NCBI GenBank assembly: GCA_030390025.1
Contig: CM059453.1
Location: forward strand, 6,324,001-6,388,000
From: Squalus acanthias
Taxonomy: Eukaryota
Direction of reading: 5' to 3'
Length of the DNA: 64,000 bases
The notes below the pieces were generated by a model, which was given only the letters and a program-made list of their open reading frames with translations, ran no database searches and was not told the origin of the DNA. Below, piece by piece: positions 1,035 to 49,246 of this stretch (its first letter is position 1; every line of letters starts with the position of its first letter). Position numbers and translations under genes: made by a program.

Positions 1035-4000
1035 GTAAGTGTCCTGTCTAAAGTAAACAGATTTATCCTATCGGACAACCGGCTCCAAATTTTCACTTTT
1101 ACCACAAGTAATTTATCAGGGGTTAGAACTGCATCAACGGATGCATCATGAAAAGCTCAGCCTCTGTACCAGGAGAGCTCACTTCGATAATCAATGGTTC
1201 GGAATGGCTCTCATCTAATTCTCATCAGTCAGATTACATTAGAAACATTCATATCCATGAATCAATGATGCTGCCTCCAACAGATATTTTAATGTGATTG
1301 TTAATCTTTATTCTATGAACTTCCAGTCAGGTTCTGAGTTTAGTCAGTCATAAATGGAAGAAACAAAGGCCATGCCGAGTTACGATCTGAAGCTCGGACA
1401 CCAGATCTCAGCTCTGGTTGGGCTTAATAAAAACTTAAGATTTAGGAAAATGACTTCGCCATACGGCCCATTCGAGCCTGCACCGCCACTCCGGCAAACT
1501 TGTCTGATCATCGAACTCAACACCAATTTCCCGTCCGATCCCCATACCCAATACAATGAATTAATGAAGAACTCAATTATGCTTATTCGACAATCACGTT
1601 TTGCATTAACGCCTGTTTCAGATGGACTGGAAATCCCAACCGTCAACTCCTCTATAGTAGCTGTGGAAGGAAGTTCATTATTATTATACTGCACGGCCTG
1701 TGGGAAACCCCTGGTCAGTTTAAGATTTGTGAAAAATGGTGAAGAGATGAGCAAATCATCCACCGGTGAACTAAAGCAGTTATTCCCCAGCATTCGTTCT
1801 GAAGACGACGGTGAATATTGGTGCATAGCTGAAAATGCTGTGGGCACCAAAAACCGCTCCACACAGATTTCTGTACAATGTAAGTATGCATGAATCTTCA
1901 ATTAGATAGTAGCCTTTCATTTCAAGAATTCTGCATTAAATTCCAATTTTCTCTTGCCTGCTTGCTGGAAGGCCCCCGTGTGCATGAGTTCTGGATAGTT
2001 TCACCACTTCCCGAGGAAATAGCGGCACACTACCTCGATGGATCCAATAATGTAAACTACCCTGGCATCTCGCTCAGTATGACAGGAGTGGAAACTGGCA
2101 CAATGTCTCATAAATGCAGCAGGTCTTATATTTATGAGGTGACGACAAGGCCACATTTACTGGGAACTTTACTCAACATCTAATTGTTAATAAATTATAC
2201 TCGTAGTCTGAAGTAAACAATTTTCCAATCCTTAGAACTGACATGCAGAAATTTGATGAGCAGAAGTTCTGCAAAACAACTGTGATAAAATGGTGTTAAG
2301 CCAACTTCTGTTAATTGTATTAATGTTGTGTTAACAGTGTAATATTCCGAGACAAGGTACTTTGAGCTGTCGCCTTGTTAGCCGAACATTTATTGAAGAA
2401 TCACTTCAGTCCAACACAAACGAAGATGTTGAAAACAGTACACAAAGTGAAGAAATTGAAATTAATTGACCCGTTAAAATAGTGACGGGTGAATCACGTT
2501 TGTGGGTATATTATAGATAATTAACACGCTGAGCTTGCTCCGTCTGAGGAACCGCCCACAATATCTGTCAGGACAGGTCTGGTTGGACTGAACACCAATT
2601 AGTTTTAAAATGAAATTGTTCCTAACGAGCTCACCTGTTATAAGTGAAAATATAATGAGCCATCAACTGGTGCAACATATGCTGCTTCATCTTAAAATAT
2701 ATCTACCAGAACTATTATGCTAACTTCAACTCATGAATTAATTGTACTTCGACACTGCAACTACTTACATGAGCATTTACTATTGAAGTTTCCATTTTTT
2801 TTCGATAAACCCACAATCTTAGCAGGCCCGACATGCACCAATTCTGTGAATTGGACGAATTGTAGCTGCCGGATCAGAGCCAACCCCCCGGGAAACATCA
2901 CGTGGAGCCTCAATGGGAGAATCCTCACTGGGGACAGGTCAGATGCGGAAATCAGCTCCAGGGCGGTGAATAGTCACCTCATGGAGAGCTCCCTGAGATT
3001 GACTCACTCAACAGGAACTGGACAAATGATCTCATGTGTTGCAGCAAATGAGCACGGTGATTCTGTCAGTAAATACCAGCTCCACTCTGAGGGTACATGT
3101 TTAATCTATCTTTAATGTAAAACTATAAGCGAGTTCTTCCATCATGATCAGTCACTAACTGAACGGTGTTAGTGTCTGCAAATACTAGCAACATTCAGCA
3201 GAAATCTATCTCAAATTAGTGTAAGGACCTACTTTAATCAGTGGTCAATCACCAACTGAAAGGTGAGGTCGGCATTATCCATTTTAACTTTCATTCTTCG
3301 GCAACTTGTTCGGTTTATATTTTCAAGATAAGTTGACATTATCTGAGCACCAGAAATAGCCAATGATCTTGGAAAACAAATTCTTCTGAATTAAGATAAA
3401 CCCTTTAGAAAATCCGAAATTATCTCAATACATGATAGCAAACTGAAATCTACCCTTTTGTAGCTACATTCTCATTTCTATCTTGTTCAGACGCATTGGT
3501 GTATGTAGAGCCGATATTCAATAGCCTAAGCAAAATTGAATTACCGCTATAGACTATAAAACTTACCGCTGCAACTGGTGACCTTGCCGGGCCTGAATTC
3601 CGCTCACATTAAGTCCACTGTTTTTCCTAGGGTGGGTTGTGGAGTGAACTTAATTTGTCAATTGAGATTTTTTCATCAGTGAATCTTAATTTATTAATTG
3701 CAATTCATGCCAGGCCGCAACACAGGAATAAAATGCTTTTACGCAAGGATCATCAGGTTGAGACAAGTGGAGTACATAATTTACCATTAGCTTTCTGATC
3801 CGAACAAAAAGGAAACTTGCTTCATCACACTTTTAAGTGTGCTTCCAAGATTGTTGTTTTACCCCAAATTCCTAATATAGAGCAATGTTATCCAACATTT
3901 TAGGAATAATCTCCAGGACAATCTTCCTCATAATAGGAGGAGGAACCATTGGGCTTGTTATTCTAATTGCAGTCGTACTCACGCTGAAAATAAAAAGGTA

Positions 4001-7000
4001 GGTGTGATTATTCATTATACAGAATTAAGTTTCAAAGGAAAACTGCATCAGAACGTCCGTGTATCAAAATCTCCTTTAAATTAAACTCCCATGAGTACAG
4101 TGGGCATCAGCCTAAACTGGTGCGTAAAGTAGGAAGGCCAATCATCCCTGACCAGTCGCTCGCATCTCCAAGCATCAAATACAGAGTAATATTAGTGTCT
4201 GCTTGAATCAGGCTGTCTGTACATTCTTCCTGTTATGTTCCTGGGGTCTGTTTTCTTCTGTTTAAAGTGGACATTTTTGGACTTCTGATCGCTGGCGCTC
4301 TTTGTGCCAGGGAGGGTTTACATTTCCCGTGCAATCTGGATAAAGTTTTCAGCATGCTCAAATATTGGGCATACAAGCCCTTTCAGTTTTTTTCTGCTGC
4401 TGGTTTCATGAGGCGCCCTCACACGAGCCTCCTTGTCATGACTGACTCTCAGCATAACACTACACCAGATTGACACTTAACTTCTATCAATCAAGCTAGT
4501 CCAGCAAACAGTAAAACAACAAGCAAATAGTAAAATAAACGTGACACATATGTTTACAGTAGTTGTTAAGTTTGTTTGGCTCAAGGAGTAAAACATTATA
4601 TTTCAAAATTGGGTGTGAGTGATGTGCTAAAATATGATATTAGCAGTTATTTATGTTGCGCTTGTTATCTTAATCTTACCAGTGATTTCATTTATTTGGA
4701 CTGACTAGCTCTCTTTGAAAGCTTTAGAAAGACTCGCTGCTTCTAATAGACAGGCTGATAATTTTCTTCAGAATTGTGACCGGCTCCAACTGAATTCAAA
4801 TAACACTGAGTTAGGTTTACAATCTGCTGCCAATGAAATTTGTCCTTCGACCGATCGGACAGGATGTTTACAATTGAAATCTATGACGTTACTTATCGGA
4901 TAGGCGCCGCCCCTCAACAGCCAATTTATCGACAACAACCGCAACAACATGAGCCAGAACACTCTTGTGAGTGGTGCTAGCTTTTAACCCTTCATGTAGC
5001 ATGATATATTTAAATAAGGCAATTCCATGTTTACTAATATCAACTAAGCAATGATCGCAAAATGATTGATGAGGAATATAGATGTATTCCTAATTTCTAA
5101 CTCCAATGTGTTGAAGTGGTCTACCTAATAATAGAAAGGACTGCGTTGACAAATTGAAACAATTGCATCTGCAATTGCCCTGTTTGAAATCATTAATAAA
5201 CCTCCCACTGACCGTTATTTATCACAATCAACTTTCACCTTGAGCAATCAGCACCGTATCATTAACGTATATTAATGCCAATCATAGATAAAGTAAAATG
5301 TTCCCTTTTGAAATGCTGGCTGGTGGAAATTGAAAAGAATTGGGTTGCGGATCTGGTCTGTGCTAATCGGGAGATGTAAAAGACACAAGGTGCCACTTAA
5401 AAGGTTATTACATAACATTAGGGCTCATGGGGTTGGGTTAATATACTTGCATGGATAGAGGATTGGTTGACAGGGAGAAAACAGAGAGTAGGTATAAACG
5501 GATCTTTTTCAGGTTGGCAGGCTACAGCTAGTGGGGTGCCGCAATGATCAGTGTTGAGGCCTCAGCTATTTACAATCTATATTAATGATCTAGATGAAGG
5601 GACCGAGTGTAATGTATCCAATTTTGTTGATGATACAAAGCTAGGTGGGACAGTAAGCTGTGAGTAGAAGACAAAGGGGTAAAAATTCACTTGGTTGCGC
5701 CTCCCGTTAGCGCCGTAAGAGGGCGCTAATGGGGCGCAAAGCCGCTAACGCCCGGGCGCAGCGATGTTTGCGCCGCTCGAGAACTTAACTTGAGATTGTG
5801 CGGCGGCGCTAAAACTTACCGCTGCGACCACCTGCGCGCGCAGATTGTGACGTCATTCCATGGTGCAACGCCCTTGTGGCGCCCCGTAGCGGAAATTGAG
5901 TGGCGCCCCCTGCCTTACCGCCTGGCGCTTCCAATGACCAGAAGACTGGAACGCTATCAATCGCTGTGGGGCTGGGGGGGCGCTATTTAAAGGGGGCCTC
6001 TTCCTGTCTTTTATTGTTGGTGGCATTTTTGAACTACGCATTCTGAGAGAGAGAGGGAGAGACTTCTGGAGAGATTCAACGTTGTGTGAAGGAGTTTTGG
6101 GTACTGAGCAGTACTTTGCAGGTTCCTTTTGATTTGCCATTCCTTGTATCGATTTAGCAGAGACTGTGGGAGCTGCACTCTGAGCTCTTTGCCTGGTACT
6201 CTCCATTGTTCTTTCCAGCACATTTGATGTGCAAGTCTCTCCAGGCCGAGATTCAAGGCAGCAATGAACAGGATGTGGATGGAAAGCAAGATTAACCATC
6301 CCCTTTAAGAACTGGCCCGTGCCATTGTGTGTGTGTTCCATTGCTGACTGACATTACATGAGCTTCGCCAGCGCTCCTAGTTAGCGCCTCACTGCTCGGC
6401 CTTTGTGCCTTAAGAGAGGTGTGCAGCGCCTGCTTTAGCGCTCCACTCACCTCCCGGGGCGGTAAAAGTGAAGTTTCCTGTCAGTGCCGATAATTAGCGC
6501 CAGGTGCTAATATTTGCGTCCGGACGATATTTGCGCCCCAAATGGGGCGCGACCTAATTTCTACCCCCAAGAGTCTGCTAAGGTATATAGATAGACTAAC
6601 CTTCACTTACCTAGCGCACGAGCCATTGTGCTGTGGGCTCGCATGTGATACCAGTCCTGGTTCTCCTCCAGCTGCAGGTGTGCCGTGCTTGCGTATCCCA
6701 GGGGCGCTGTTATTTCGAACCGTGCCCTGGGATCACGTGGGCCATGGAGAGCCAATCGGAGTAGGGAATCTCTATTCATAGATTTGACATGAAGACTTGT
6801 CAAATCTATGAATAGAAATCACTCCCAAAACCGAACTAAAACTTCAAATCAATTAAGAAAAAAAGTAACATTTTAAAAATAACTATAAGTTACATAAATT
6901 AACTATTTTAAACAAAAATTTACATTTTTGAAAACATTAATTGCTGTTTTTAACGGGGCAAAAAATAAACTTTCCTTTCATTAAAGTATTTAAAAAAGAT

Positions 7001-10000
7001 AAACCTGTGGAAAAAAAAAAAAATTGCACTTAATTCATCACTTACCTTATTAAAAGCAGGCCTTGCGCCTGCTCTTTCCACGCGCAGCGGCCAGGGACTT
7101 AGCCACACTTCAAAACCTGTAATAAAAAACGGAAGTTCGCTGCGTGCGCGCTGCCTTTCCGGCGCACGCGTTTTACTTCCGAAACCCTTCATTCAAGGGA
7201 ACGGAAGTTCCGGTTTCCAGCGCATGCGCAGTGCATACTCGAAACCGGCACTTTCGTTGGGTTTGCGGGTGAGCACACAGCGAGTACTCACCCGTGGAGT
7301 CCCGAATTTTTGGCCCAGAGTGGGCTGTTAGGAGGCAGATGGAGAATAATGTAGGGAAATGTGAGGTTATTCACTTTGGTAGAATGAATAGCAAAACAGA
7401 ATATTTTTTAAATGGTGAGTAACTTTGAAATGTTGGTATTCAGAGTGATTTCGCTGTCCTCGTTCAAGAAACACAGAAAGCTAGCATACAGATACAGCAA
7501 GCAATAAGGAAGGCAATGGTATGTTGACCTTTATTGCAAGTGGGTTGGAGTATAAGAGTAAGGAAGTCTTGCTAAAAGTGTACAGGGCCATAGTGAGACC
7601 ACACCTGGAGTACTGTGCTCAGTTTTCTTCTCCTTTTCTAAGGAAGAATATACTTGCCATTAAGGCGATCCAAGGAATGTTCAGTAGGTTCATTCCTGAG
7701 ATGAGAGTGCTGTCCAATGATGAGAGATTGTGAATAATGGGACTGCATTATCTGGAGTTTAGAAGAACGAGAGGTGATCTCTTTGAAACATACACGATTC
7801 TGAAGGGGATTGACAGGCTAGATGCTGACAGGTTGTTTCTCACGACTGGAGTGTCTAGAAAAAGGGGGTATAGTCCCCGGATAAGGGGTAGGCCATTTAA
7901 GACCGAGATGAGGACGACATTCTTCGCTCAGAGGGTTGTGAATCTTTGGAATTCTCTGCCCCAGAGGGCTGTGGCTGCTCAGTCTTTGAGTAAATTCATG
8001 GCTGAGATAGATAGATTTTTGGACTCCAGGGGAATCAAGGGATGTCCGACGGGAAAGTGAGGTTGAGGTCGAAGTTCAGCCATGACCTTATTGAATGGCG
8101 GAAAAGTCTCCAGGGGCCGTATGGCCGACTCCTGCTCCTATTTCTTATTTCTTATGTTCTTAAATCTTTCCTGACCCACTGACGTCCTCATCGCGCAGGC
8201 GCTGTGTGCTTTCACTAAACATACCAGTTAATTAAGTCAAGTGCCTCGTTTGCTTTTGTTATTATTCAGGAAGAAACACGGAGAAGCTGCACGTGTCTCC
8301 GAAGCACACGATGATTTGATGATTTACAGTCGGGTGCAGTACGCACGAAAGGCAGACGTAAGTGATGCAAAGCTGGGCTGACAATTGAAGGATGTTTGAG
8401 GTGCTTTCAAACAGCAATGACTCATAACGTGCAATACCCAACAGATAAACTGGAGTGTCAGAAACTTGTTGACCATTAAGGGAGGATTAACCGCCTCACT
8501 TCGCTAAGAGTGAAACCTAGCTACAGACTATACGTGTAGTGACCGACTAAATCCAATTAGGGAGCATTTCTCACCTTGGAGTTCCTTCAAAAGACACATT
8601 CTTAATATAAGAATGCGTTTCCAATGTCATCTTACCCCCTACCAATTAGGTCTCATCTGTTAAATGCCCAACAAGATCACAAAGTGTCAGCGACCCAGAG
8701 GGGATAATCGTTGCCATTCCTCAGGTTTATGTGCAACTTCCGAGTTGCATCTTGCTGCCGATGTGGGCCCCGTGTTCCCCACCTTTGGGTAAGAAGGTTG
8801 TGGCTTCAGGCTTCGCTCCAGCATTTGAACCTATAATCTGGGCTGATACTTCACTTCAACACTGAAGGTCTGCAGCATTGCCGGATGACCCGTCCTTTCG
8901 ATTAGATGTTAAACGAGTCCCCGTTTGTTTCCTCCTATGGAGGGAAACGATCATATGGTCCTATTGTGGGGTCGGATGAGAGGTGTCCCAGTGCCCTTGC
9001 TAACATTTTTCCCTCAATGAACACCAGCTAAAACAGATTAATTCGCCATTCACCCAATTAACTGGTTGCTGCATTTTTCCTACAATAGCGGCAGGAATTC
9101 TAAAGTTATTATTTGCATAGCAGCGCTTCGGTCTTAATAATCACAGAATCATACAGCCCAGAAGGAAGCCATTCAGCCCATGGTGCCTGACCTGGCTGTT
9201 TGAAAGAGCTAAATAATTAGTCACACTACACTGCTTTTTCCCCTTAGCCCTGATTTAATGTTTTTTTTCATATTCACGCATATATCAATTTTCCCTTTGA
9301 AAGTCACGATTGAATCTGCTGCCACCGCCCTTTCAGATGTGCATTCCAGATCACAACAACCCGCTGAGTTTAAAAAAAACCTTCTCACCTCTCATTTTGT
9401 TCTTAACTCAAATATCTTCAATCTGTGTTATCTGGTTAGCGAAGCTCCTGCCAGTGGAAACAATCTCTCCTGATTTACTGTATCAAAATTCTGCAGAATT
9501 TGGATCACCAATATCTAATCTCCCTTTATCATTCTCTACACTAAGGAGAACAACTCCAGTTACCCTAGACTTTCCGTTTAAGGGCGGTCCCCCATTTCTC
9601 CTATAATTCTAGTAAATTTGCACTGTATGCTCTCTAATGCATTGACATCCTTTTGACAGTGTTATGCAAGAATTGGACACAATACTCCAGCCGGGCATAA
9701 CCACTGATGTGCAAAGATTCAGCGTATCTTCCTTGTTTTCATAATCTGTACCTCAATTTATAAAAACCCGGATCAAGTATGCTATTTAGAAGCCTAGAAT
9801 CATAGATTTTTACAGCACAGAAAGCGACCTTTCGGCCAGTAGTACCTGTGCTGGCTGTTTGAAAGAGGTTCCCAATTTAGTGGCACACCCCAGCCTTATC
9901 GACTCGTTCGAATATACAATTTCACGTTCTTTATTTCTTGCATCAAGACTTAACAACGCTCATTTCATGGATCAGTACCATTAGAAAACTTACAAGTGAT

Positions 10001-10269
10001 AAAATAGTGAGATTTTTTCTGTTGCAGACAGCACTCTCCCATCGCATTCTGCTCCATATCTGCAATAACTCCACATCCAACACAAATACCTTCCGTTACA
10101 GAGGGACCAACAGTGTACAGAGGCTGGTCGTGGCGCCGCACAATCGACTAAACCAGCTCAGACTGACGAGATTGCGTACGCGACCGTCAATGTCTCCAAC
10201 TTCGGCAAACATCATCAATATATTCAAAATGAGGAGACCTGCGAATATGCAGCAATTAAACAGAACTGA
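723..10269 (+). CDS. Gene A: paralogous Siglec-like receptor, 5' end outside the window; join(723..1034,1622..1879,2805..3092,3904..3997,8270..8357,10102..10269); possibly decaying
   Basis: Exon-for-exon match to gene B (312/258/288/94/88/168 nt) with open frames, but the Ig4 acceptor is CG instead of AG and the Ig3 C-strand Trp is Phe. Confidence 0.8.
1622..1879 (+). CDS. Gene A Ig domain 3 exon
   Basis: cag|ATGGA..CAAT|gtaagt; [12 protein letters not shown]. Confidence 0.88.
2805..3092 (+). CDS. Gene A Ig domain 4 exon (canonical acceptor mutated)
   Basis: Homologous to 43399-43686. Preceded by tcg rather than tag; donor G|gtacat is intact. Confidence 0.7.
3904..3997 (+). CDS. Gene A transmembrane exon
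   Basis: tag|GAATA..AAAG|gtaggt; [31 protein letters not shown]. Confidence 0.88.
4904..4966 (+). other. Candidate 63-nt alternative cassette exon with in-frame TGA (gene A)
   Basis: tag|GCGCCG..CTCTT|gtgagt; in phase 2 it reads [16 protein letters not shown]; 61/63 identical to 45200-45262. Confidence 0.55.
5676..6567. mobile_element. MITE-like non-autonomous DNA transposon, specific to copy A
   Basis: Terminal inverted repeats GGGGTAAAAATT / AATTTCTACCCC. The CR1 sequence resumes on both sides and the element is absent from paralogue B. Confidence 0.75.
6600..7317. mobile_element. MITE-like element (CACGTG-GGCC..CCAAT family), specific to copy A
   Basis: Ends GAATTTTTGGCCC, AT-rich core, shares motifs with 10650-11378 and 11873-12617. 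Confidence 0.6.
8270..8357 (+). CDS. Gene A cytoplasmic exon ([29 protein letters not shown])
   Basis: ttcag|G..GAC|gtaagt, 88 nt. Confidence 0.82.
8785..9130 (+). mobile_element. Degenerate DeuSINE
   Basis: Diverged match to 13965-14435. Confidence 0.55.
10102..10269 (+). CDS. Gene A last coding exon with ITIM IAYATV and distal TCEYAAI
   Basis: ttacag|AGGGAC..TGA, 168 nt, phase 0. Confidence 0.88.
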   Translation, partial: RDQQCTEAGRGAAQSTKPAQTDEIAYATVNVSNFGKHHQYIQNEETCEYAAIKQN

Positions 10270-38163: not shown

Positions 38164-41100
38164 GTACATTTCTGATGCTTTTTTTTACAATTTCTGCAAG
38201 TGATTTATAACTTGTGGGAAAGGAACAGCAAAATAAAGAATATAAATGATTTTGTTGTTGTTAGTTTTAGAACTTGTGAAATAGGAATTTCATGATTGTT
38301 TAACTTGTGCGTTGTTGTTGTATTGTAGCGGGAACAGCCTATTCAAATAATAATTAAATATAGGAATTTTCAAATTATTTTTTATTTTAAAGCACATTTA
38401 ATAAAATTTACTTCATAATGATTGAGTGATTCAAAGGAGATTCAATAGATGTTTAAAATATATTTTGTTCAATATTTTAATGTATATTTAAAGAGCACTT
38501 TTAATGGGCGTTCGCTTACTTGTTAGTGGAAATGTATTCGGTTTTTAAACGGGTATTAAATATGTATATTACAGGTTCATAAATCTCCCATCAAATAGGT
38601 ATTCCTATGACCATTTCAGCAGGTGTTGTGATTGGAATTTATTTAGTATTTTTTCTTGATTTTGAAAAGACCTTCACTGATATTTTAATTGCTATTGTGA
38701 ATGGCGATTATTTGTCAATTAACAAATACTTTAATGGATTCTAAAATGCTGAAATGCATTTTGAATGACTAATTAAAGGGTGTCTATTTTTTTTCTAAGT
38801 TGTTTTTAGTGCTGCATTCTCTGTGATGATACCAAAAGTTATGTCGGCGGTGGCCGGTTCATGTGCAGAGATCCGGTGTACGTTTGATTATCCAGTCTAT
38901 CAGAGAATCACTGATGTGAGGTGGTTAAAGAGGAACCCTGTTCCTGCTATCCCAGGCTTCTCCATTCTCTATGATTCTAAAGATCCATACATGCAGCATT
39001 ATAACTATGGTGGAAGAGCTGAGTTCACGGGCAACATTGCAAAGCAACAATGTTCCCTCCTGCTAAATGATATCAGGAAGAGTGATGAGGGCACATACCA
39101 ATTCAGCATGGAGATCGCTTTGGACAGAAATTTTGGTAGACTTCGGACTCTGCGTGCTGACGTCTTTCTTTCTGTTTTAGGTGAGTTTTCTCTTTGTTCC
39201 TTTTGTACATTTTCACTCCAGTGCTTCAGTATGATTCAACCTATGTGCAAAGTGGGCAAATATTATAACGTCCCTGACCGATCTCAAAGGGTAGTTGAAA
39301 CATAGGATGCAGGGATACTGATAAGGGTCGCAGATGTCTGATATCCTAAACACAGAGGTATATAAAAATTACAACATTAAAATAGGCCGTTCGGCCCAGC
39401 CAGTCCGTGTTGCTGTTTATCCTTCACATGAGCAACACTCCGAATCGGAATTGCCTGGTCAGTTCCCATAACCCTTCATTGCAATTCCCTTCAAACACCT
39501 GTCGAGCCTATTCTGAAAATGTCCACATGAGGATAGATTAGTACTTGTTGACTGAACCTAAAACTAACGTTGTTGGTCGTACATACAATATATAAACCAG
39601 CAGCTCATTATTTCCAGTGAAATGAAAGGGAATGAAACTAAAGCGTTTGCTAAAATGGGTGATCTGTCTGGAATGAGAAATTTGACCAGGGCGGCCATTT
39701 CAAATTCTACTTCAGTCTCCTTCTATGTCCTCTGTCCCGTTGCCTAATAAGTTTAAGCACTTCAGTCAAATTATCATTAAATCAGTTTTAAACTCATAAG
39801 ATCTTCACTAATTTTTAAATATTTTCTTGTTATTTAAACTTCCTCATACCGGCCAGAATCTACGCGAATCCGCCGTAAATTCTTCCGATAGAGTGGAGCC
39901 CAATACCCGCATTCTGACTCCAACTGTGAACTAACTCCTGTACGCATCAGAACCTCCACTAATCTCGTATTTATATGATTGATCTCTTGCCATTAAACCC
40001 AGAACTCTAGAAACATCTTCATACACTTTCCCACTGGAGCTGCTACTTTTACTGTCTCATGAACCTGACCCCAAATTCCTCTGCTCTTCCACATCTCCCA
40101 GCTTCCAACGGTTCAAATGAACTTCTATGACCTCATATTTTCTGACCTTTAATTATATCTGCCTCTTATGTCCACAATCTACTATATCTACAGTATCCGT
40201 TTGAAACTCGCTTTATTTCTCTTGTTATATCCTGGGAGTTGTACTTGCAAGGTTGGCATATGTGTCAAACTGGCGATATTGGATGTGCCTCTCATTGTAC
40301 ACCCCGCCCAATTTTCATTTTGGTGGAATCCAATTAATTCCTGTTGGAAATTTTGAAATCACTCTCTTTAACGCCATCTCCAAATTATTGATATACACAG
40401 TGAGTAGAAGCAATTCCACAGCACAACCCTCTGGGACACCGTACTGGGATCCAACTATTCTGAGCAACTGCGCTTAACGGCGACTCGCTGCATCGTCCCT
40501 TCTAAACAGTTTGTATTGCAATTTCTACCTTATCCTTAAATCCAAACCTCTTAATATCTTCTCCAATTATCTCCTGTGTTTACCGTCGGCAATGTCTGTC
40601 TGATTACATTTCAAGTTACTTATTGGTGATGCGTCTTTTGACGTCGCGTAGACTTAAAAAGCGGTGAATTAATGCAGTCTTTGTTCGTGCCTTTCCCGTT
40701 CCAGAGCTCATTTACCCCGCTTTAATTAGATCTTAATTAAAAAGTAGATATTTCAGTAGCGTGAAAATCAGTTCAAGTTATAATTTATGTGTTCATCCAA
40801 ATCCCACGTCAACAAATGTTATTTCTGCTGAAGCCTTCCTCAGATTTACACGTGAGGAACTTGCTCTGCTTCTCCCACACAAGGTGTTGTTACGCGTCCT
40901 TTTTTGGTCTGTCCATGTCTTGAGTATTGCCGTTCTATATTGAGGTTTCTTGACTACAGAATCGAGATCTCTCTGGGTCTGCATTAATCGCCATCACATA
41001 GATCAGTGCAGGTGCAGAACGAGGTATATGAGTGGATGACATATTCGTGAGATTTGAGTAGTTAACGTTGATTCAAATTCTAGCTTGCAAAATTTGTTCA

Positions 41101-44100
41101 CTGAACAATATCCATGATACAAATAATTTAGGAGAAAAACGACAAATAGTTAAGTAAGTTGGGCCATATGTTACCCGATGAAGCATAAAACTACATTTCA
41201 ACTGCGAGGAGTAATTCAGAATGGTGAACACACTTGCAGCACGTAGCAGAGAAAAATGAACAAAATGTGATTTTCTTGTTGATTCAGATTTATTTGGAAG
41301 CCATCACTCGCCCGTTCTAACATTGAACTGTACCTAACACGCTGGTCTTCTCCCGTTTTCATAGACAAGCCGGAGATTTCAGGTTATGGGGAATTGATCG
41401 CTGGACAAACAGCACGACTGACCTGTTCCATCACACACAACTGCCCGAATGGCAACCTGCAAGTGAAGTGGATTAATTACAATGTGCCCCTTCCTCCCCC
41501 AATGGTTACTCAAGATGGAGCAGAAATTAGCAATGAAAATTCAGGTTCCCGAACAGTTTCATCCGTGATCACATTTACACCATCATCTGCTCATCACGGG
41601 AAAATTCTGGGATGCACAATTCTAATTCATGGTATCCCAACACCTTCACGACAAAATCTTACCTTGAAGATTAAATGTAAGTGTCCGGTCTAACGTAAAC
41701 AGACTTATTCAGACGGCCAACGGGCTCTAAAGTTATACGTTTACCTGAAGTAATTTATTCGGAGTTAGAATCTCATCAAATAATGCTTCATGAAACGCTC
41801 AGCCCCTGTACCAGGAGAGCTCACTTCGATTATCAATGGTTCGAAATGGCTCTCATCTAATTCTCGTCAGTCAGATTACATTAGGAACATTCACATCCAT
41901 GAATCAATGATGGTGCCTCCAAGAGATTGTTTTTTATGTGATAGTTTATCTTTATTCTAATGAAGCAACAAAGGCCATGCCGTGTTAAGATCTGCAGCTA
42001 TGACAGCAGATATCAGCTCTGGTTGGGCTTAATAAAAACACAAGTATTAGGAACAGGAGTAGGCCATACGGACCTTCGAGCTTGCTCCGCCTCTACACCA
42101 AACATGGCTCGTCGTCGAACTAAACTCGAATTTCCCGCCCGATCCCCAGACCCAATATAATGAATAAATTAGGAGCTCAATTATGCTTATTCGGCAATCA
42201 CGTTTTGCATTAACGCCTGTTTCAGATGGACTGGAAATCCCAACCGTCAACTCCTCTATAGTAGCTGCGGAAGGAAGTTCATTATTATTATACTGCACGA
42301 CCTGGGGTATACCCCAGGTCAGTTTAAGATGGGTGAAAAATGGTGAAGAGATCAGCAGGTCTTCCACTGGTGAACTTAAGCATATATTCCACAACATTCG
42401 TTCTGAGGACGACGGTGAATATTGGTGCATAGCGGAAAATGCCCTGGGCACCACAAACCGCTCCACACAGATTTCAGTACAATGTAAGTATGTATTAAAA
42501 TATCAATTAAGTAGTAGCTTTTCATTTCACGAACTCTGGATTAAATTCCAATGTCCTCTTGCCTGCTTGCTTGAAGGCGCCCATGTGCATGAGTTCGGGA
42601 TATTTTAACCCCTTCCCGCGGAAATAGCGGCAAACTACCTCGATGGCTCCAATAATGGAAACTAACCTGGCATCTCGCTCAGTATGACAGTAGTGGAATA
42701 TGGCACAATGTCTCCTAAATGCAGCATGTCTTATATTTATGCAGTTGCGACAGGAGCACATTTACTGGGACCTTTAATCTACAACTAATTGTACAAAAAT
42801 AATACACGTAGCCTAAAATAAACAATTTTCCAATCATTTGAAAGGACTTGCAGCAATTTGATGAGCACAAATTCTCTTGAAAAAAATCTAATAAAATGGT
42901 GTTAAGCCAATTCCTGTTACTTGTATTAATTTTGAGCTAATAGTGTAATATTCTCCAGACTTGGTTCTTTGAAGTGTCGCCTTGTTTATTGAAGAATCAC
43001 GTCAGTCCAAAACAAATGAAGATGTTTAAAACAGTACACAAATTGAAGATATTGACATGAATTGATATTTTAAAACAGTGACGGATGAGACACGTTTGTG
43101 GGTATATTATACATAATCAAATCTCTGAGCTAGCTCCGTCTGAGCGTCCTCACAACATCTGTCAGGAGAGGTATTGACGGACTTAACACTCGTTGGATTT
43201 AATATGGACTTGTTCCTAACAAGCTCACCTGTTATAAGTGAAGATATAATAAGCCACGAACTGGTGTAACATAGGCTGTTTCATCCTAAAATATAACAAC
43301 CAGAACTATTATGATTAGTTCAACTCATTACTTAATTGTATTTCGACAGTACAACTGTTTACATGATAATTTCCTAATGAAATTTTCATTTTTTTTAGAT
43401 AAACCCACAATTTTAGCAGGACCGACATGCACCAGCTATGATAATTGGGCGAATTGTAGCTGCCGGATCAGAGCCAATCCCCCGGGAAACATCACGTGGG
43501 GCCTCAATGGGAGAATCCTCACTAGGGACAGGTCAGATGTGGAGGTCATCTCCTGGGCGTGGAATAGTCACCTCATGGAGAGCTCCGTGAGATTTACTCA
43601 CCCAAACGGAACCGGAAAACTGATCTCTTGTGTTGCAGCAAACGAGCACGGTGATTCTGTCAGCAAATACCAGCTCCACTCTAAGGGTACGTGTTTAGTC
43701 TATCTGTAATGTAATACTATAAGGGAGTTGGTCCATCACTGGTCAGTCACTAACTGAAAGGTATTAATGTCAGCAAATACCAGCTACATTCAGCAGGTCC
43801 ATACTGAATCTCACTCGAATTAGTGTAAGGACCTACTTTCATCAGTGGTCAATCACCAACTGAAAGGTGCGGTCGGCATTATCCATTTTAACTTTCAGTC
43901 TTCTGCAACTTGTTCGGTTTATATTTTAAAGATAAGTTGAAAGTATCTGAGCACCAGAAATTGTAAGTGATCTTTGAAAACAAAATCTTCTGAATTAAGA
44001 TAAACCCTTTCGAAAATCCTAAATTATCTCAATACATGATAGCAAACTGCAATCTACCATTTTGTAGCTACATGCTCATTTCTATCTTGTTCAGACTCAT

Positions 44101-47100
44101 TTAGGTATGCAGAGCCGATATTCAATAACCTAAGCAAAATCTGCATTCCGATCAGATTTAGCCCACTGTTTTTCGGAGGGTGGGTTGTGGAGTGAACTTA
44201 ATTTGTCAATTGAGATTTTTACATCAGTTAATCTTCAACTATTAATTCCAATTTACACCAGGGTGCAACACAGGAATAAAAGGTTTTTACGCAAGGATCA
44301 TAAGGTTGAGACAAGTGGAGTACCTAATTTACCACGAGCTTTGAATCCGAGCTTAAAGGAAACTTGCTTCCTCACACTCATAAAAGTGCTTCTAAGATTG
44401 TTGTTTAAACCCAACGTCGTAATGTACATCAATGTTTTTTCCCCCAACATTTCAGGAATATTATCCACAACAATCGTCCTCATAATAGGAGGAGGAGCCA
44501 CAGGGCTTGTTATTCTAATTGCAGTCGTGCTCACGCTGAAGATACAAAGGTATGTGTGATTCTTAATTCGATAGAATTGAATTTTAAAGATGACCCTATA
44601 GGCCAGTGATTGTTTTCACCTCCGGTGTAATCTGGATAAAGTATGCAGCATGCTCAAAGAATAGGCGGAGAATCCCTTTAAGTTTGTTCATGCTGCTAGT
44701 TTTAAGGGGCACCCTCACACGAGCCTGCTTGCCATGTCAAGCTCTAAGGATAGTACTACACAAGAATGATACTTAAATTCTAACAACCAAGCTGGTCCAG
44801 CAAACAGCAAAACAACAAGCAAATAGTAAAAGTAATGTGACACAAATGTTTACAGCACGTGTTAAGTTTGTTTGGCTCCAGGAATAGAAGATTAGATTTC
44901 CAAATTGGATGTGAATGATGTACTAAAGTATGAAACAAGCAATTATATATGTTGCCCTTGTTATCTTATTCTTACCAGTGACTTAAGCTATTTGATCTGA
45001 CTAGCTCTCACTGAAAGCCGCAGACAGACACCCTTCTTTTAAAAGGCAGGCTGATAATTACCTTCAGAATTGTGAACGGCTCCCAGTGAATTCAAATAAC
45101 AACCAGATCGGTTTATAATCTGCTGCCAATCATATTTATCCTTCAACGAATATGCCAGGATGTTTACAATTGAAATCTATGACGTTGCTCCTCGGATAGG
45201 CGCCGCCCCTCAACAGCCAATGTTTCGACAACAACCGCAACAACATGAGCCAGAACACTCTTGTGAGTGTTGCTAGCTTTTCCCCCTTCATGTACCATGA
45301 TATAATTTAATAAGGCAATTCCATGCTTAATAATATGAACTAATCAATGATTGCAAAAAGATTGATGAGGAATATTGATTCATTCCTGATTTCTAACTCC
45401 AATGTGTTGAGGTCGTCTACCTAAAAAAAGGAAGGACTGCGTTGACACATTGAAACACTTGCATCTGCTATTTACCCAGCTTCAAATCATGAATGAACCT
45501 CCCACTGACCGTTATTTATCACACTCAACTTTCACCTAGAGCAATTAGCATCGTGCCGTTAACGTATATCAAAGATAAAGCAAAATGTTCCCTTTTGAAA
45601 TGTTGGCTGATGGAAATTGAAAATAATTGGTTTTCGGATCTGGTCTGTGCTAATCGGGAGAAGTAAAAGCCCAAGGCGCCACATTAAAGGTTAGAACACA
45701 AGATTAGGACTCATGGGGTTGAGGCTAATATAATAGCACAGATATAGGGTTGGATAACGGACAGAAAACAAAGAGTTGGGATAAGCGAATCTTTTTCAGG
45801 TTGGCAGGCTGCAACTAGTGGGGTGCCGCAATGATCAGTGTTTGGGCCGCAGCTATTTACAATCTATATTAATGAACATGCTGAAGGGACCGAGTGCAAT
45901 GTATCCAAGTTTGTTGATACAAAACTTGGTGGTACAGTAAGCTGTGAGGAGAACACAAAGAGTCTGCAAAGAAATAAAGATAGATTAAGTGAGTGGGCAG
46001 TAAGATGGAGTATAATGTAGGGAAATGTTGATGTTCAGAGCGATTTGGCTGTCCTAGTGCAAGAAACACAGAAAGCTTCCATGCAGGTATAGCAAGCAAT
46101 AAGGAAGGCAAATGGCATGTTGGCCTTTATTGCAAGGGGTTTGGAGTAGAAGAGTAAGGAAGTCTTGCTACAAATGTACAGGTAATACCACACCTGGAGT
46201 ACTGTGCACAATTTTCGTCTCCTCTAAGGAAGGATAGATTTGCATTCGTGACAGTGCAACGAAGTTTCATTAGATTGATTCCTGGGATGAAAGGGCTGTC
46301 TTATGGTCAGAGATTGTGTAGAATGGGCCTATTGTCTCTGGAGTTTAGAAGAATGAGAGGTGATCTCTCTGAAACATACAAGATTCTGAATGGGAATGTC
46401 AGGGTAGATGCTGAGAGGTTGTTTTCCCGGGCTGGAGTTTCTGCAACACTGGGAGTTAGTCTCAGGATAAGGCGTCGTCTATTCAAGACCGAGAGGAGGA
46501 GGAATTTCTTCACTCAGAGGGTTGCGAATTTTTGGAATTTCCTGCCTCAGAGGGAATTTTGAGTACTTTCAAGGCCGAGATAAATAAATGTTTGTACTCT
46601 AGGAGAGTCAACGTGTACGGAGATGGGTTGGGAAAGTAAAGTTGTTGTATGTGATCAGTCATGATCTTATTCAATGGCGCAGCAGGCTCGAGTGGCCGTC
46701 TGGCAAACTCCTGCTCCTATTACTTATATTTGTATGTTGTTAAGTCTTTCGTGACCTACTGACGTCCTTCATCGCGCAGGCGCCGTGTCCTTTCACTAAA
46801 TATTCCAGTTAATTATGAGAAGTGCCTAATTTGCATGTTTTTTTGTTCAGAAAGAAACACGGAGATGCTGCACGTGTCTCCGAAACACACGGTGATTTGT
46901 TGATTTACAGTACGGCGCAGAAGGCACTAAACACTGACGTAAGTGACGCCAAGCTGGGCTGCCAATTGTAGGTTGTTTTGTTCGGTCTTAATAATCATAG
47001 AACCAGACAGCCCAAATGGAGCCGTTCAGCCCACGGTGCCTGTGTTGGCTCTTTTAAAGAGCTATCCAATTAGTTACATTACTCTGCTCTTTGACCTTAG

Positions 47101-49246
47101 CCTTGATCTGATTTTTTTTTTCCATATTCACGCGTATATCCAATTCCCTTTTGAAAGTCACTATTGATTCTGCTGCCACGGACCTACAGGCAGCGCATTC
47201 CACATCACAACTCGCTGAGCTAAAAAAAAACTTCTCACCTCTTATTTGGTTCTTGTCCCAAATATCTTCAATCTGTGTCCTCTGGTTAGCGACACTCCTG
47301 ACAGTGGAAACAGTTTCTCCTTAATGTTGGATCAAAATTCTGCAGGAATTTGATCACCAATATCTAATCTCCCTTTAATATTCTCTACACTCAGGACAAC
47401 AACCCCAGTTTCGCTGAACTGTCTGTTTAAGTTCAGTCCCTCATTCCTCCTATAATTATAGTAAATATGCTCTGTATCCTCTCCAATGCATTGACATCCT
47501 TTCGACAGTGTTATGCACAGAATTGGACAGAATACTCCAGCCGAGGCCTAACAACTGATGTATAAATGTTCAGCTTATCTTCGTTGTTTTCTTAATCTGT
47601 AACACAATTTGTAAAAACCCGGATCAAGTCTGCAATTTCGAAGCTTTAGAATTATTTTACAGTACAGAAGGCGAATATTCGGCCCGTTGTACCTGTGCCA
47701 GCTCTCTGAAAAATGTTTCAAATTTAGTCCCACACCCCAGCTTTATCGAGTCGTCCGGATATACAATTGCACGTTCTTTATTTATTGCATCAAGACTTAA
47801 CAACGCACGTCTCATGCATCAGGGCCATTATAAAACTTGCCAGGGATAAAATAGTAAGATTTTTACTGGTGCAGACAGCACACTGCCATTGCATTCGGGT
47901 CCATATTTTTTTTATTCGTTTATGGGACGTGGGCGACGCTGGCAAGGGGCAAGGCCAGCATTTATTGACCATCCCTAAATGCCCTTGAGAATGTGGTGGT
48001 GAGCCGCCTTCTTGAACCGCTGCAGTCCGTGTGGTGAAGGTAGTTCACAGTGCTGTTAGGGAAGTAGTTCCAGGATTTTGACCCAGCGACGATGAAGGAT
48101 CGGCGATATACTTCTAAGTGAGGAGGGGAACTTGGAGGTGGTGGTGTTCCAATAGGCCTGCCGCCCTTGTCCTTCGAGGTGGAAGTGGTCGCGTGTTTGT
48201 TAGGTGCAGCGGAAGGAGCCTTGGCGAGTTGCTGCAGTGCATCTTGTAGATGGTACACACTGCAGCCACGGTACGCCGGTGGTTGAGGGGGTGAATGTTT
48301 ACGGTGCTGGATGGGGTGCCAATCAAGAGGGCTGCTTTGTCCTGGATGGTGTCGAGCTTCTTGAGTGTTGTTGGAGCTGCACTCAACCAGGCAAGTGGAG
48401 AGTATTCCATCACACTCCTGACTTGTGCCTTGCAGATGGCAGAAAGGCTTTGGGGAGTCGGGAGGTGAGACACACGCCACAGAATACCCAGCCTCTGACG
48501 TGCTCTTCTTACCATACATCTGCAATAGCTCTGTTGTGGAGTATTTTAAACCAACACTCGACACAAGGGTTTAGATCGATAGTCAAGTTGTCTTTATTAA
48601 ACCGGTGGGGAAACAGTCTGCTCTGTCCTAGCCAGACTTCTCCAAATTGTAAAAGCAAACACTACATTTTTATACATTACAAAACACATGGCCATCTCAT
48701 GTTCAATTTATTCCTGCCACCTGATTGGATTTTGGCCAGCATACACCTGTATGGATTGGTTCCGAATCTTAATAAAAACATGTATAAGCTGCCTCTTCAA
48801 ACAATCACTCAAACTGAGGAATGCTGATTAAATGATACCTTATTATGCGACCTAGATAATAACGTTCTTACGGGCAGTTGGAATGCTGGACATCCTGTCT
48901 TCATTTTAAATGTTTTCTATCTTTCCAAAGTTCAGCTATCGTTGACCACATCTTTATGGAATTGGCCCTCCATGTTAGCCCCTGCCTTTTTACACTATTC
49001 AGAGAAAGTGCCAGCAATGTGATTTTAACTCTTCCCCCACTGCAGCTCCACATCTAATACAAATGCCTTCCTTTACAGAGAGACCATCAGTGTACAGAGG
49101 CTGGTCATGGCGCCGCTCAATCGACGAAACCAGCTCAGAATGACGAGATTGTGTACGCGACCGTCAATTTCTCAAACTTACGCAAACATGATCAATATAT
49201 TCAAAATGAGGAGTCCTGCAAATATGCAGCAATGAAACATAACTGA
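38121..49246 (+). CDS. Gene B: complete Siglec-like (MAG/CD33-related-like) inhibitory receptor, V-set + 3 C2 Ig + TM + ITIM tail; join(38121..38163,38800..39180,41365..41676,42226..42483,43399..43686,44456..44549,46851..46938,49079..49246)
   Basis: Eight exons with AG/GT boundaries and compatible phases (1,1,1,1,1,2,0) sum to 1632 nt with no internal stop. Siglec Cys pattern in V-set (GSCAEIRC..QQCSL), domain 2 (TCSITHNCP) and domain 4 (GPTC..NCSC). Tail carries IVYATV. Confidence 0.88.
38800..39180 (+). CDS. Gene B exon 2, Siglec-type V-set Ig domain
   Basis: GSCAEIRCTFDYP...W...GRAEFTGNIAKQQCSLLLNDIRKSDEGTYQF; donor G|gtgagt at 39180. The phase-1 acceptor is the AAG at 38797-38799, so the start is less certain. 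Confidence 0.88.
41365..41676 (+). CDS. Gene B exon 3, Ig domain 2 (C2-type)
   Basis: tag|ACAAGCCG..AAAT|gtaagt, 312 nt; LTCSITHNCP..W..ITFTPSSAHHGKILGC. Confidence 0.9.
42226..42483 (+). CDS. Gene B exon 4, Ig domain 3
   Basis: cag|ATGGA..CAAT|gtaagt, 258 nt; [27 protein letters not shown]. Confidence 0.9.
43399..43686 (+). CDS. Gene B exon 5, membrane-proximal Ig domain 4 (C..CxC type)
   Basis: tag|ATAAAC..AAGG|gtacgt, 288 nt; [24 protein letters not shown]. Confidence 0.9.
44456..44549 (+). CDS. Gene B exon 6, transmembrane helix
   Basis: cag|GAATA..AAAG|gtatgt; [31 protein letters not shown], with no charged residue in the helix. Confidence 0.9.
45200..45262 (+). other. Candidate 63-nt alternative cassette exon with in-frame TGA (gene B)
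   Basis: tag|GCGCCG..CTCTT|gtgagt; reads [16 protein letters not shown]. Confidence 0.55.
45670..46740 (+). mobile_element. Degenerate CR1 3' part, shared with copy A (predates the duplication)
   Basis: [20 protein letters not shown]1 tail. Confidence 0.82.
46851..46938 (+). CDS. Gene B exon 7, cytoplasmic (KKHGDAARVSETHGDLLIYSTAQKALNTD)
   Basis: ttcag|A..GAC|gtaagt, 88 nt, phase 2 to 0; paralogous to 8270-8357. Confidence 0.82.
47907..48512 (-). mobile_element. LINE 3' fragment of a distinct CR1/L2-group family, specific to copy B
   Basis: KAQVRSVMEYSPLAW..LNHRRTVAAVCTIYKMH; polyA end; CCATA on both flanks. Confidence 0.8.
48532..49044 (-). mobile_element. Probable solo LTR, specific to copy B
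   Basis: TG..CA termini, imperfect terminal inverted repeat (TGTTGTGG/CCACTGCA), GCTC duplicated on both flanks, absent from copy A. Confidence 0.65.
49079..49246 (+). CDS. Gene B last coding exon with ITIM IVYATV and distal SCKYAAM
   Basis: ttacag|AGAGAC..TGA, 168 nt, the same length as the last exons of A and C. Confidence 0.88.
   Translation, partial: RDHQCTEAGHGAAQSTKPAQNDEIVYATVNFSNLRKHDQYIQNEESCKYAAMKHN

Follow-up and report, generated by a model that had tools for sequence, protein, structure and literature searches.

The window, meaning the whole 64,000-nucleotide stretch of Squalus acanthias DNA analysed here, contains a tandem pair of receptor genes on one strand. Gene A occupies positions 1 to about 10270 of the plus strand, with its V exon beyond the window edge, and gene B spans 38800-49246 on the same strand. 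The exons of gene B were modelled from tblastn matches to shark homologues and by examining the splice sites. They are a V-set exon (38800..39180), Ig exon 2 (41365..41676; 723-1034 in A), Ig exon 3 (42226..42483; 1622-1879 in A), a membrane-proximal Ig-like exon (43399..43686; 2805-3092 in A), a transmembrane (TM) exon of 94 nt and phase 1-2 (44456..44549; 3904-3997 in A), a first cytoplasmic exon, cyt1, of 88 nt and phase 2-0 (46851..46938; 8270-8357 in A) and a last coding exon (49079..49246; 10102-10269 in A), all on the plus strand. The last exon carries an ITIM (IVYATV in B, IAYATV in A) and a distal tyrosine motif; each gene has one match to the ITIM signature [IVLS]xYxx[LV] (PMC7226832). 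The TM exons of both genes end in phase 2. Joining TM exon to cyt1 gives an 85-residue ITIM tail, a structure found in most of the retrieved homologues.

The membrane-proximal Ig exon of gene A has CG (2803-2804) at its acceptor position, where gene B has AG. AGs lying 18 and 21 nt inside this exon preserve the frame, and so would skipping of the whole 288-nt exon; gene A therefore need not be a pseudogene. The CG could also be an assembly error. A third family member lies between A and B on the minus strand (25628-31964). It is a decayed copy with stops in the V, Ig and last exons, its membrane-proximal Ig, TM and cyt1 exons were not detected by tblastn within the window, and it is classed as a pseudogene. 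At 58780-62094, two inverted copies of a presumably Penelope-like reverse-transcriptase element are 92% identical over 1.3 kb, and many CR1-like LINE pieces lie nearby.

A Siglec-like receptor family of sharks and rays

The receptor scored above the Pfam cut-offs for V-set and Ig_CD22, and its order of parts is that of Siglecs: an N-terminal V-set, then Ig domains, a TM segment and tyrosine motifs. The best solved match of the gene B V domain is sialoadhesin (E 5e-12). On the F strand, the Arg of the sialoadhesin motif NFRFEI, which we take to be the sialic-acid-binding residue, is replaced in gene B by Ser. As this essential Arg is absent from the F strand of the gene B V-set, the gene is called Siglec-like here, not a Siglec. 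Most of the shark relatives also have a V-set without the Arg, which is present in one Heptranchias gene (P0025/P0062/P0063). Judged by sequence, the shark family is probably for the most part not sialic-acid-binding.

Homologue, profile and cluster searches retrieved 208 proteins, 49 of which are family members from sharks and rays. Closest to A and B, at 64-71% identity in the membrane-proximal domain, are shark models annotated as 'MAG-like' or 'SIGLEC-like'. Such chondrichthyan receptors, among them Pristiophorus P0003 and Heptranchias P0005/P0006, share with A and B the V-set and Ig domains, the TM segment, two cytoplasmic exons and the ITIM with a distal tyrosine motif. In a midpoint-rooted tree of 26 rows built on the C-terminal 225 residues, A and B are sister duplicates (support 100/99) adjoining a Pristiophorus protein. 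Mammalian MAG, together with two proteins whose tails are MAG-like, is separated from the chondrichthyan group (100/100); A and B fall outside the MAG clade of this tree and are not MAG orthologues. Among the Siglec, elasmobranch, MAG and CD22 papers listed from a mostly open-access library, none describes this shark family in its title or abstract opening.

A conserved exon-like block between the TM exon and cyt1

Between the TM exon and cyt1 of both genes lies a block of 63 nt on the plus strand (45200..45262 in B, 4904..4966 in A), 650 nt (B) and 906 nt (A) past the TM-exon end. It is bordered by canonical AG and GT dinucleotides, with TAG before and GTGAGT after it in both copies, which are identical at 61/63 positions. 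Within the window, the block has no copy other than that of the paralogue. Read in phase 2, it encodes RRPSTAN(L/V)STTTATT-stop, while the other two phases are open. The TGA (45246-45248 in B) stands 14 nt before the block end and 102 nt before the junction of cyt1 with the last exon. Each copy has four CpGs, the flanks having about 0.9-1.3 per 63 nt; the block keeps all 4, and the introns keep 79/208 (P about 0.02). In these respects, as in the exon-junction coordinates of both genes, the original prediction, which took the block for a stop-containing cassette exon, was accurate. Two of its arguments do not carry over. The basic residues that were read as a stop-transfer sign are not diagnostic, since the AG left by the TM exon makes the first Arg codon after the helix with any purine, and the ordinary tail formed with cyt1 itself starts R-K-K. 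The 2-2 phase symmetry is of no advantage to an exon that bears a stop.

Introns of A and B are 85.0% identical (5162/6073 ungapped columns) and coding exons 89.5% (1081/1208). The block, at 96.8%, is above any individual real coding exon of the pair (84-91%). A single 63-mer chosen beforehand would reach 61 matches with P = 0.003, but the whole alignment was the pool from which this block was selected. When the columns of the aligned non-exonic DNA were shuffled 1000 times, an average of 1.9 non-overlapping windows of 63 columns reached at least 61 matches (P of at least one 0.90), compared with 3 observed (P = 0.28). Besides the block, these are two stretches of plain intron, at A 3237 and 3383. 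For 104-column tracts with at least 99 matches, 4 were observed vs 0.76 expected (P = 0.003); three of the four, including the top one at A 3220-3323, are simply intron, so similarity is patchy in general here. Moreover, conservation extends about 40 nt into each flank (38/41 upstream, 36/40 downstream). Conservation alone thus fails to single out the block, and the excess over the flanking intron claimed in the original prediction was not established beyond chance. As A and B are sister duplicates, their likeness reflects inheritance from one ancestral copy and not independent conservation. Both differences between the block copies fall in one codon and change its residue (L/V), and the other third positions are unchanged; any constraint would therefore act on nucleotides, not on the peptide.

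Conservation equal to or above that of the block is also seen in A+T-rich intron tracts at 3215-3490/43820-44095 and 1167-1270/41809-41912 (100/104 and 99/104). These tracts are candidates for a conversion tract or a regulatory element. A donor-like site at 3262/43866, inside conserved A+T-rich sequence, scores 7.2 and 4.7. The longest identical run of A and B (73 bases, 1549-1621/42153-42225) spans the last part of the intron that precedes Ig exon 3 and continues into the exon.

The block differs from other conserved intron in its composition, with a G+C content of 52-54% vs 39%. The other intron windows number 5142, and 144 of them match it in G+C content (at least 52% in both copies); with a mean of 50.8/63 and a maximum of 58 they are less conserved than average. 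Donor-like sites that score as well in either copy number 15, and at least 61/63 matches lie upstream of the block donor only. Such upstream conservation occurs at 37/5593 positions, giving a joint P for conservation and donor of about 0.09. The block also holds four WCWWC motifs, the SRSF3/A-C-rich enhancer motif; none of 2486 intron windows has four, the motif having been picked post hoc. The G+C, donor, CpG and WCWWC signals overlap and were sought after the block had been chosen. Taken in combination, a G+C-rich, conserved sequence with its donor kept appears to do somewhat better than conservation alone. Neither a structured RNA family nor a transcribed high-copy repeat was indicated at the block by Rfam (0 matches for the region at E<=1), by the fold of the surrounding 151 nt (z -0.24, no stable structure), by RNA cover or by copy number.

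Splice sites and predicted forms

Splice sites were scored with a rounded weight matrix. The block donor matches the consensus at +1..+6 and scores 2.3, real donors ranging from -0.1 to 8.1; decoy GTs as good as it number 11/367 in B and 17/418 in A. The acceptor of the 63-nt form is weak, at 0.2 (B) and -3.0 (A), and is matched or beaten by 33/409 decoy AGs in B and 127/497 in A. Real acceptors range from -3.4 to 7.2, the lowest being that of the TM exon of A. In gene B, 11 AG..GT pairs have both scores at least equal to those of the block. Two belong to the block itself, and the 9 pairs elsewhere use 7 other donors. Eight pseudo-exons are kept in both copies; six of them use the block's donor, and the block is the most conserved.

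The 5' end of the block is not fixed, as AGs at 45159/4863 and 45217/4921 share its donor and score equally or better. Use of the upstream CAG would give a 104-nt form (45159..45262, plus strand; 4863-4966 in A; 99/104 identical), which has an open frame and acquires its stop at the cyt1 junction, 86 nt before the last junction. The internal CAG would give a 46-nt form (45217..45262, plus strand; 4921-4966 in A), which shifts the frame; its stop falls at one and the same position of cyt1 in both genes, 43 nt before the last junction. With a score of 1.2 in each gene, its acceptor outdoes the other two, and no other form at the block has positive scores for both sites in both copies. Nonsense-mediated decay (NMD) concerns stops that precede a downstream junction by more than 50-55 nt, as given in the available text of PMC11062102. 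By this rule, the 63-nt (102 nt) and 104-nt (86 nt) forms are predicted NMD targets and the 46-nt form (43 nt) would escape. The original prediction had proposed a tail-less decoy or an NMD-based dosage control for the 63-nt exon. The latter stands with the stop 102 nt from the downstream junction, the former is disfavoured for that form, and the alternative acceptors with their opposite NMD outcomes were missed.

A TGAC at 45180..45183 (plus strand; kept in gene A), which we take to be of the branch-point consensus type, places its A 18 nt before the 63-nt form. Since the first AG past the branch point normally wins on the scanning model, this position favours the 63-nt form. The AG-free 41 nt, the TGAC and the donor are kept in both copies.

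A stem-loop is predicted over the donor (45248..45278, plus strand; 4952-4982 in A, with one pair broken), the GT lying in a 4-nt loop and bases +3 to +9 being paired. Its predicted stability is -13.3 kcal/mol in B (z -2.9; 1/200 shuffles as stable) and -10.2 kcal/mol in A (z -1.4; 19/200). The hairpins at 10 real donors are all weaker (-0.9 to -7.0 kcal/mol). Averaged over the block donor, the probability of being unpaired is 0.44-0.45; real donors span 0.26-0.71, a range that includes it. No covariation was found in the hairpin, the lone A/B difference there breaking a pair. Two further arrangements were set aside as unsupported, namely an in-frame micro-exon of 9 nt (score -8.7 for its acceptor at 45254/4958) and a soluble form that skips the TM exon and terminates at a stop created by the junction.

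Three RNA runs labelled with the same species, which contain 0.02 of the sequence words, were aligned to 38500-50000 at 84% likeness. Their depth is 0 over 43492-45411, the TM exon and the block included, and so says nothing for or against inclusion of the block. Depth reached thousands in intronic repeats, in contrast to the block, which had no cover at this likeness; the 15 RNA joints among those listed, of 60, are all in such repeats and none is at the block. On Ig exon 2 lie two low-depth contigs with 21/170 and 19/189 mismatches to B, about as many as separate A from B there (19 and 20), so they come from a paralogue.

A block-like tail, in any frame, was found in none of the 49 family proteins, a comparison of the A/B candidate with chondrichthyan Siglec-like receptors at the protein level. 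Nine of the 49 end within 60 residues past the membrane-proximal Ig domain, and Heptranchias XP_067831325.1 is an isoform stopping four residues past the TM exon, all being unchecked gene models. These short tails differ in sequence from the block, and two fit intron read-through. The N-G-R-stop of the Heptranchias type is absent after an AG from both TM-cyt1 introns. When the three frames of the block were compared with the 208 proteins, one match to a sturgeon protein (E 0.059) was rejected as lying in the V domain region. In metagenomes, no related locus was found (55 pattern matches, none confirmed) and a 25-mer of the block had no match; the ESM Atlas gave no usable match for the 34 residues that the 104-nt form encodes in its open frame. 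Isoforms of the NMD type are usually missing from protein records, and the protein search therefore cannot test unproductive inclusion. It counts a little against a stable short tail, whether from the 46-nt or the 63-nt form.

Origin and possible uses of the block

The block is a real sequence feature and a candidate exon, and whichever reading holds, the mechanism is of a known kind. The explanation preferred here, though tentatively, is an inherited pseudo-exon. An exon-like intron segment with a weak acceptor and a consensus donor would have predated the tandem duplication and drifted slightly less than average since then, by chance or through a short gene-conversion tract. The spliceosome would by default join the TM exon straight to cyt1 and make the 85-residue ITIM tail, the block being skipped through its weak acceptor and the folding of donor bases +3..+9 in the hairpin. 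Rare inclusion of the 63 nt would be removed by NMD and have no selected role. There may be ten times as many pseudo-exons as real ones, and a donor can be blocked by a stem, according to the available part of PMC1935003. For this reading speak the chance-level number of 61/63 windows, the patchy tracts with at least 99/104 matches, the nine equal-scoring AG..GT pairs in gene B, the weak acceptor, a donor hairpin stronger than at 10 real donors and the 0/49 tails. Against it stand an identity above every real exon, the G+C-rich outlier position, the CpG and WCWWC counts, the block's rank as the most conserved of the 8 kept pseudo-exons and the equally low acceptor of a real exon, the TM exon of A; the modelled mean pairing of the donor, of the order seen at real ones, would also argue against it. 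Selected use of the block as an exon, all forms together, is a serious possibility that falls short of probable. The sequence gives the alternative exon of the original prediction less support than was claimed for it. The weights given to these readings are a judgement from the counts, not a computed posterior.

Of the uses that may be considered, a poison cassette exon is a real but minor possibility. Regulated inclusion of the 63-nt (or 104-nt) form would lead to NMD and less inhibitory receptor; the A/C-rich enhancers would raise inclusion and the donor hairpin would lower it. The nucleotide conservation reaching about 40 nt into both flanks, the block's place as the sole G+C-rich intron window conserved above 58/63, and the keeping of donor, TGAC and AG-free stretch in both copies are consistent with this, and the stops of both forms satisfy the distance rule. 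The protein search would be blind to such isoforms. On the other side, conservation alone is within chance and the joint P is about 0.09, and the hairpin has no compensatory change. Known poison exons resemble the block in being internal, in carrying a stop that precedes a junction by more than 50-55 nt and in lying in a conserved intronic tract, and a conserved intronic tract in BRD3 turned out to be a poison exon (cited in the available text of PMC11062102). The same text describes unproductive splicing as most typical of genes for RNA-binding proteins. Here, in contrast, conservation comes from one young paralogue pair, and inclusion and NMD sensitivity are predicted.

A DNA-level element, such as an intronic enhancer, with a G+C- and CpG-rich core for factor binding and with incidental AG and GTGAGT, is doubtful. 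It would account for conservation that disregards the exon borders, for CpGs kept on either side of the acceptor and for comparable conserved tracts in other introns without an exon signature. The GC-box-like stretch on the minus strand of the block was, however, noted only by eye.

It is unlikely, slightly more so than a DNA element, that the 46-nt form serves as a tail-switching exon. Through the frameshift in cyt1 it would make a membrane-anchored, ITIM-less receptor that extends some 30 residues beyond the TM exon, has a Cys-rich end and no tyrosine motif, and comes from an mRNA escaping NMD. Its acceptor and donor scores, open frame and shared stop position fit this proposal. However, the TAG 17 nt upstream would be the first AG past the likely branch point on the scanning model, the scores come from the rounded matrix, both A/B differences are non-synonymous in its frame, and no such tail occurs in the 49 family proteins, though it could have been annotated as coding. 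The two outcomes could be combined in a switch of one donor, three acceptors and three frames, where the 63- and 104-nt forms lead to NMD, the 46-nt form yields the stable ITIM-less, Cys-tailed receptor and the donor hairpin sets the inclusion level; this is improbable. A decoy, in which the 63-nt form is a stable ligand-binding receptor with a 16-residue Ser/Thr tail and no signalling, has the predicted frame and stop and the short-tailed family models on its side but is highly improbable, its stop making the mRNA a predicted NMD target, no AATAAA common to both copies following the block (A 5195; none in B before 45683), and the relatives' short tails being other sequences; only the 46-nt form would give an ITIM-less membrane isoform escaping NMD.

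S-MAG arises from a stop-bearing penultimate exon. MAG resembles A and B in its Siglec-type ectodomain and in splicing that alters the C terminus, and it had been invoked in the original prediction as precedent. The available text of PMC7072810, however, gives S-MAG as stable and S- and L-MAG as sharing 37 cytoplasmic residues, so S-MAG is not tail-less and, with A and B outside the MAG clade and the block preceding cyt1, MAG is no precedent for a tail-less form. By analogy, CD150 Cyt-new and CD33-E7a appear closer. Cyt-new of CD150/SLAMF1 (nCD150) was likewise an unrecognised AG/GT-flanked exon after the TM exon, 510 bp past it, of 83 nt and lineage-restricted, and its inclusion removes signalling motifs, as described in the part of PMC4339833 available. 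It differs in being shown by cDNA, the block being known here from sequence alone, in acting by frameshift (as the 46-nt form would, and not the 63-nt form) and in belonging to another receptor family (same text of PMC4339833). CD33-E7a is a Siglec isoform in which an early stop in an alternative exon removes most of the intracellular domain and which is displayed at the cell surface, according to the accessible text of PMC5190023; unlike the block, it replaces the last exon after the ordinary cytoplasmic exon 6 (same text of PMC5190023). The block is an internal cassette candidate that directly follows the TM exon and has two junctions downstream of it.

If the block is used, a shark leukocyte receptor could tune or drop its inhibitory tail through splicing, a matter of interest to comparative immunologists. 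The trick of mammalian CD33, CD150 and MAG would then have arisen separately in cartilaginous fish, with no new mechanism. Should the switch be true, a chondrichthyan family that has been little studied would have evolved, independently and in its own lineage, a counterpart of Cyt-new and CD33-E7a. If the block is unused, it is a caution that 61/63 identity between young paralogues is no proof of an exon.

Other routes to receptors without a tail are suggested by the same genes and their relatives. Read-through of the TM donor (44550-44558 in B, 3998-4001 in A) ends the protein with R-Y-V-stop in B and R-stop in A, and the Scyliorhinus model P0013 ends in the same R-Y-V as gene B. Intron retention or intronic polyadenylation may thus be another tail-less route. 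The Heptranchias and Narcine models P0025 and P0206 are without a TM segment, so that soluble forms are predicted in the family.
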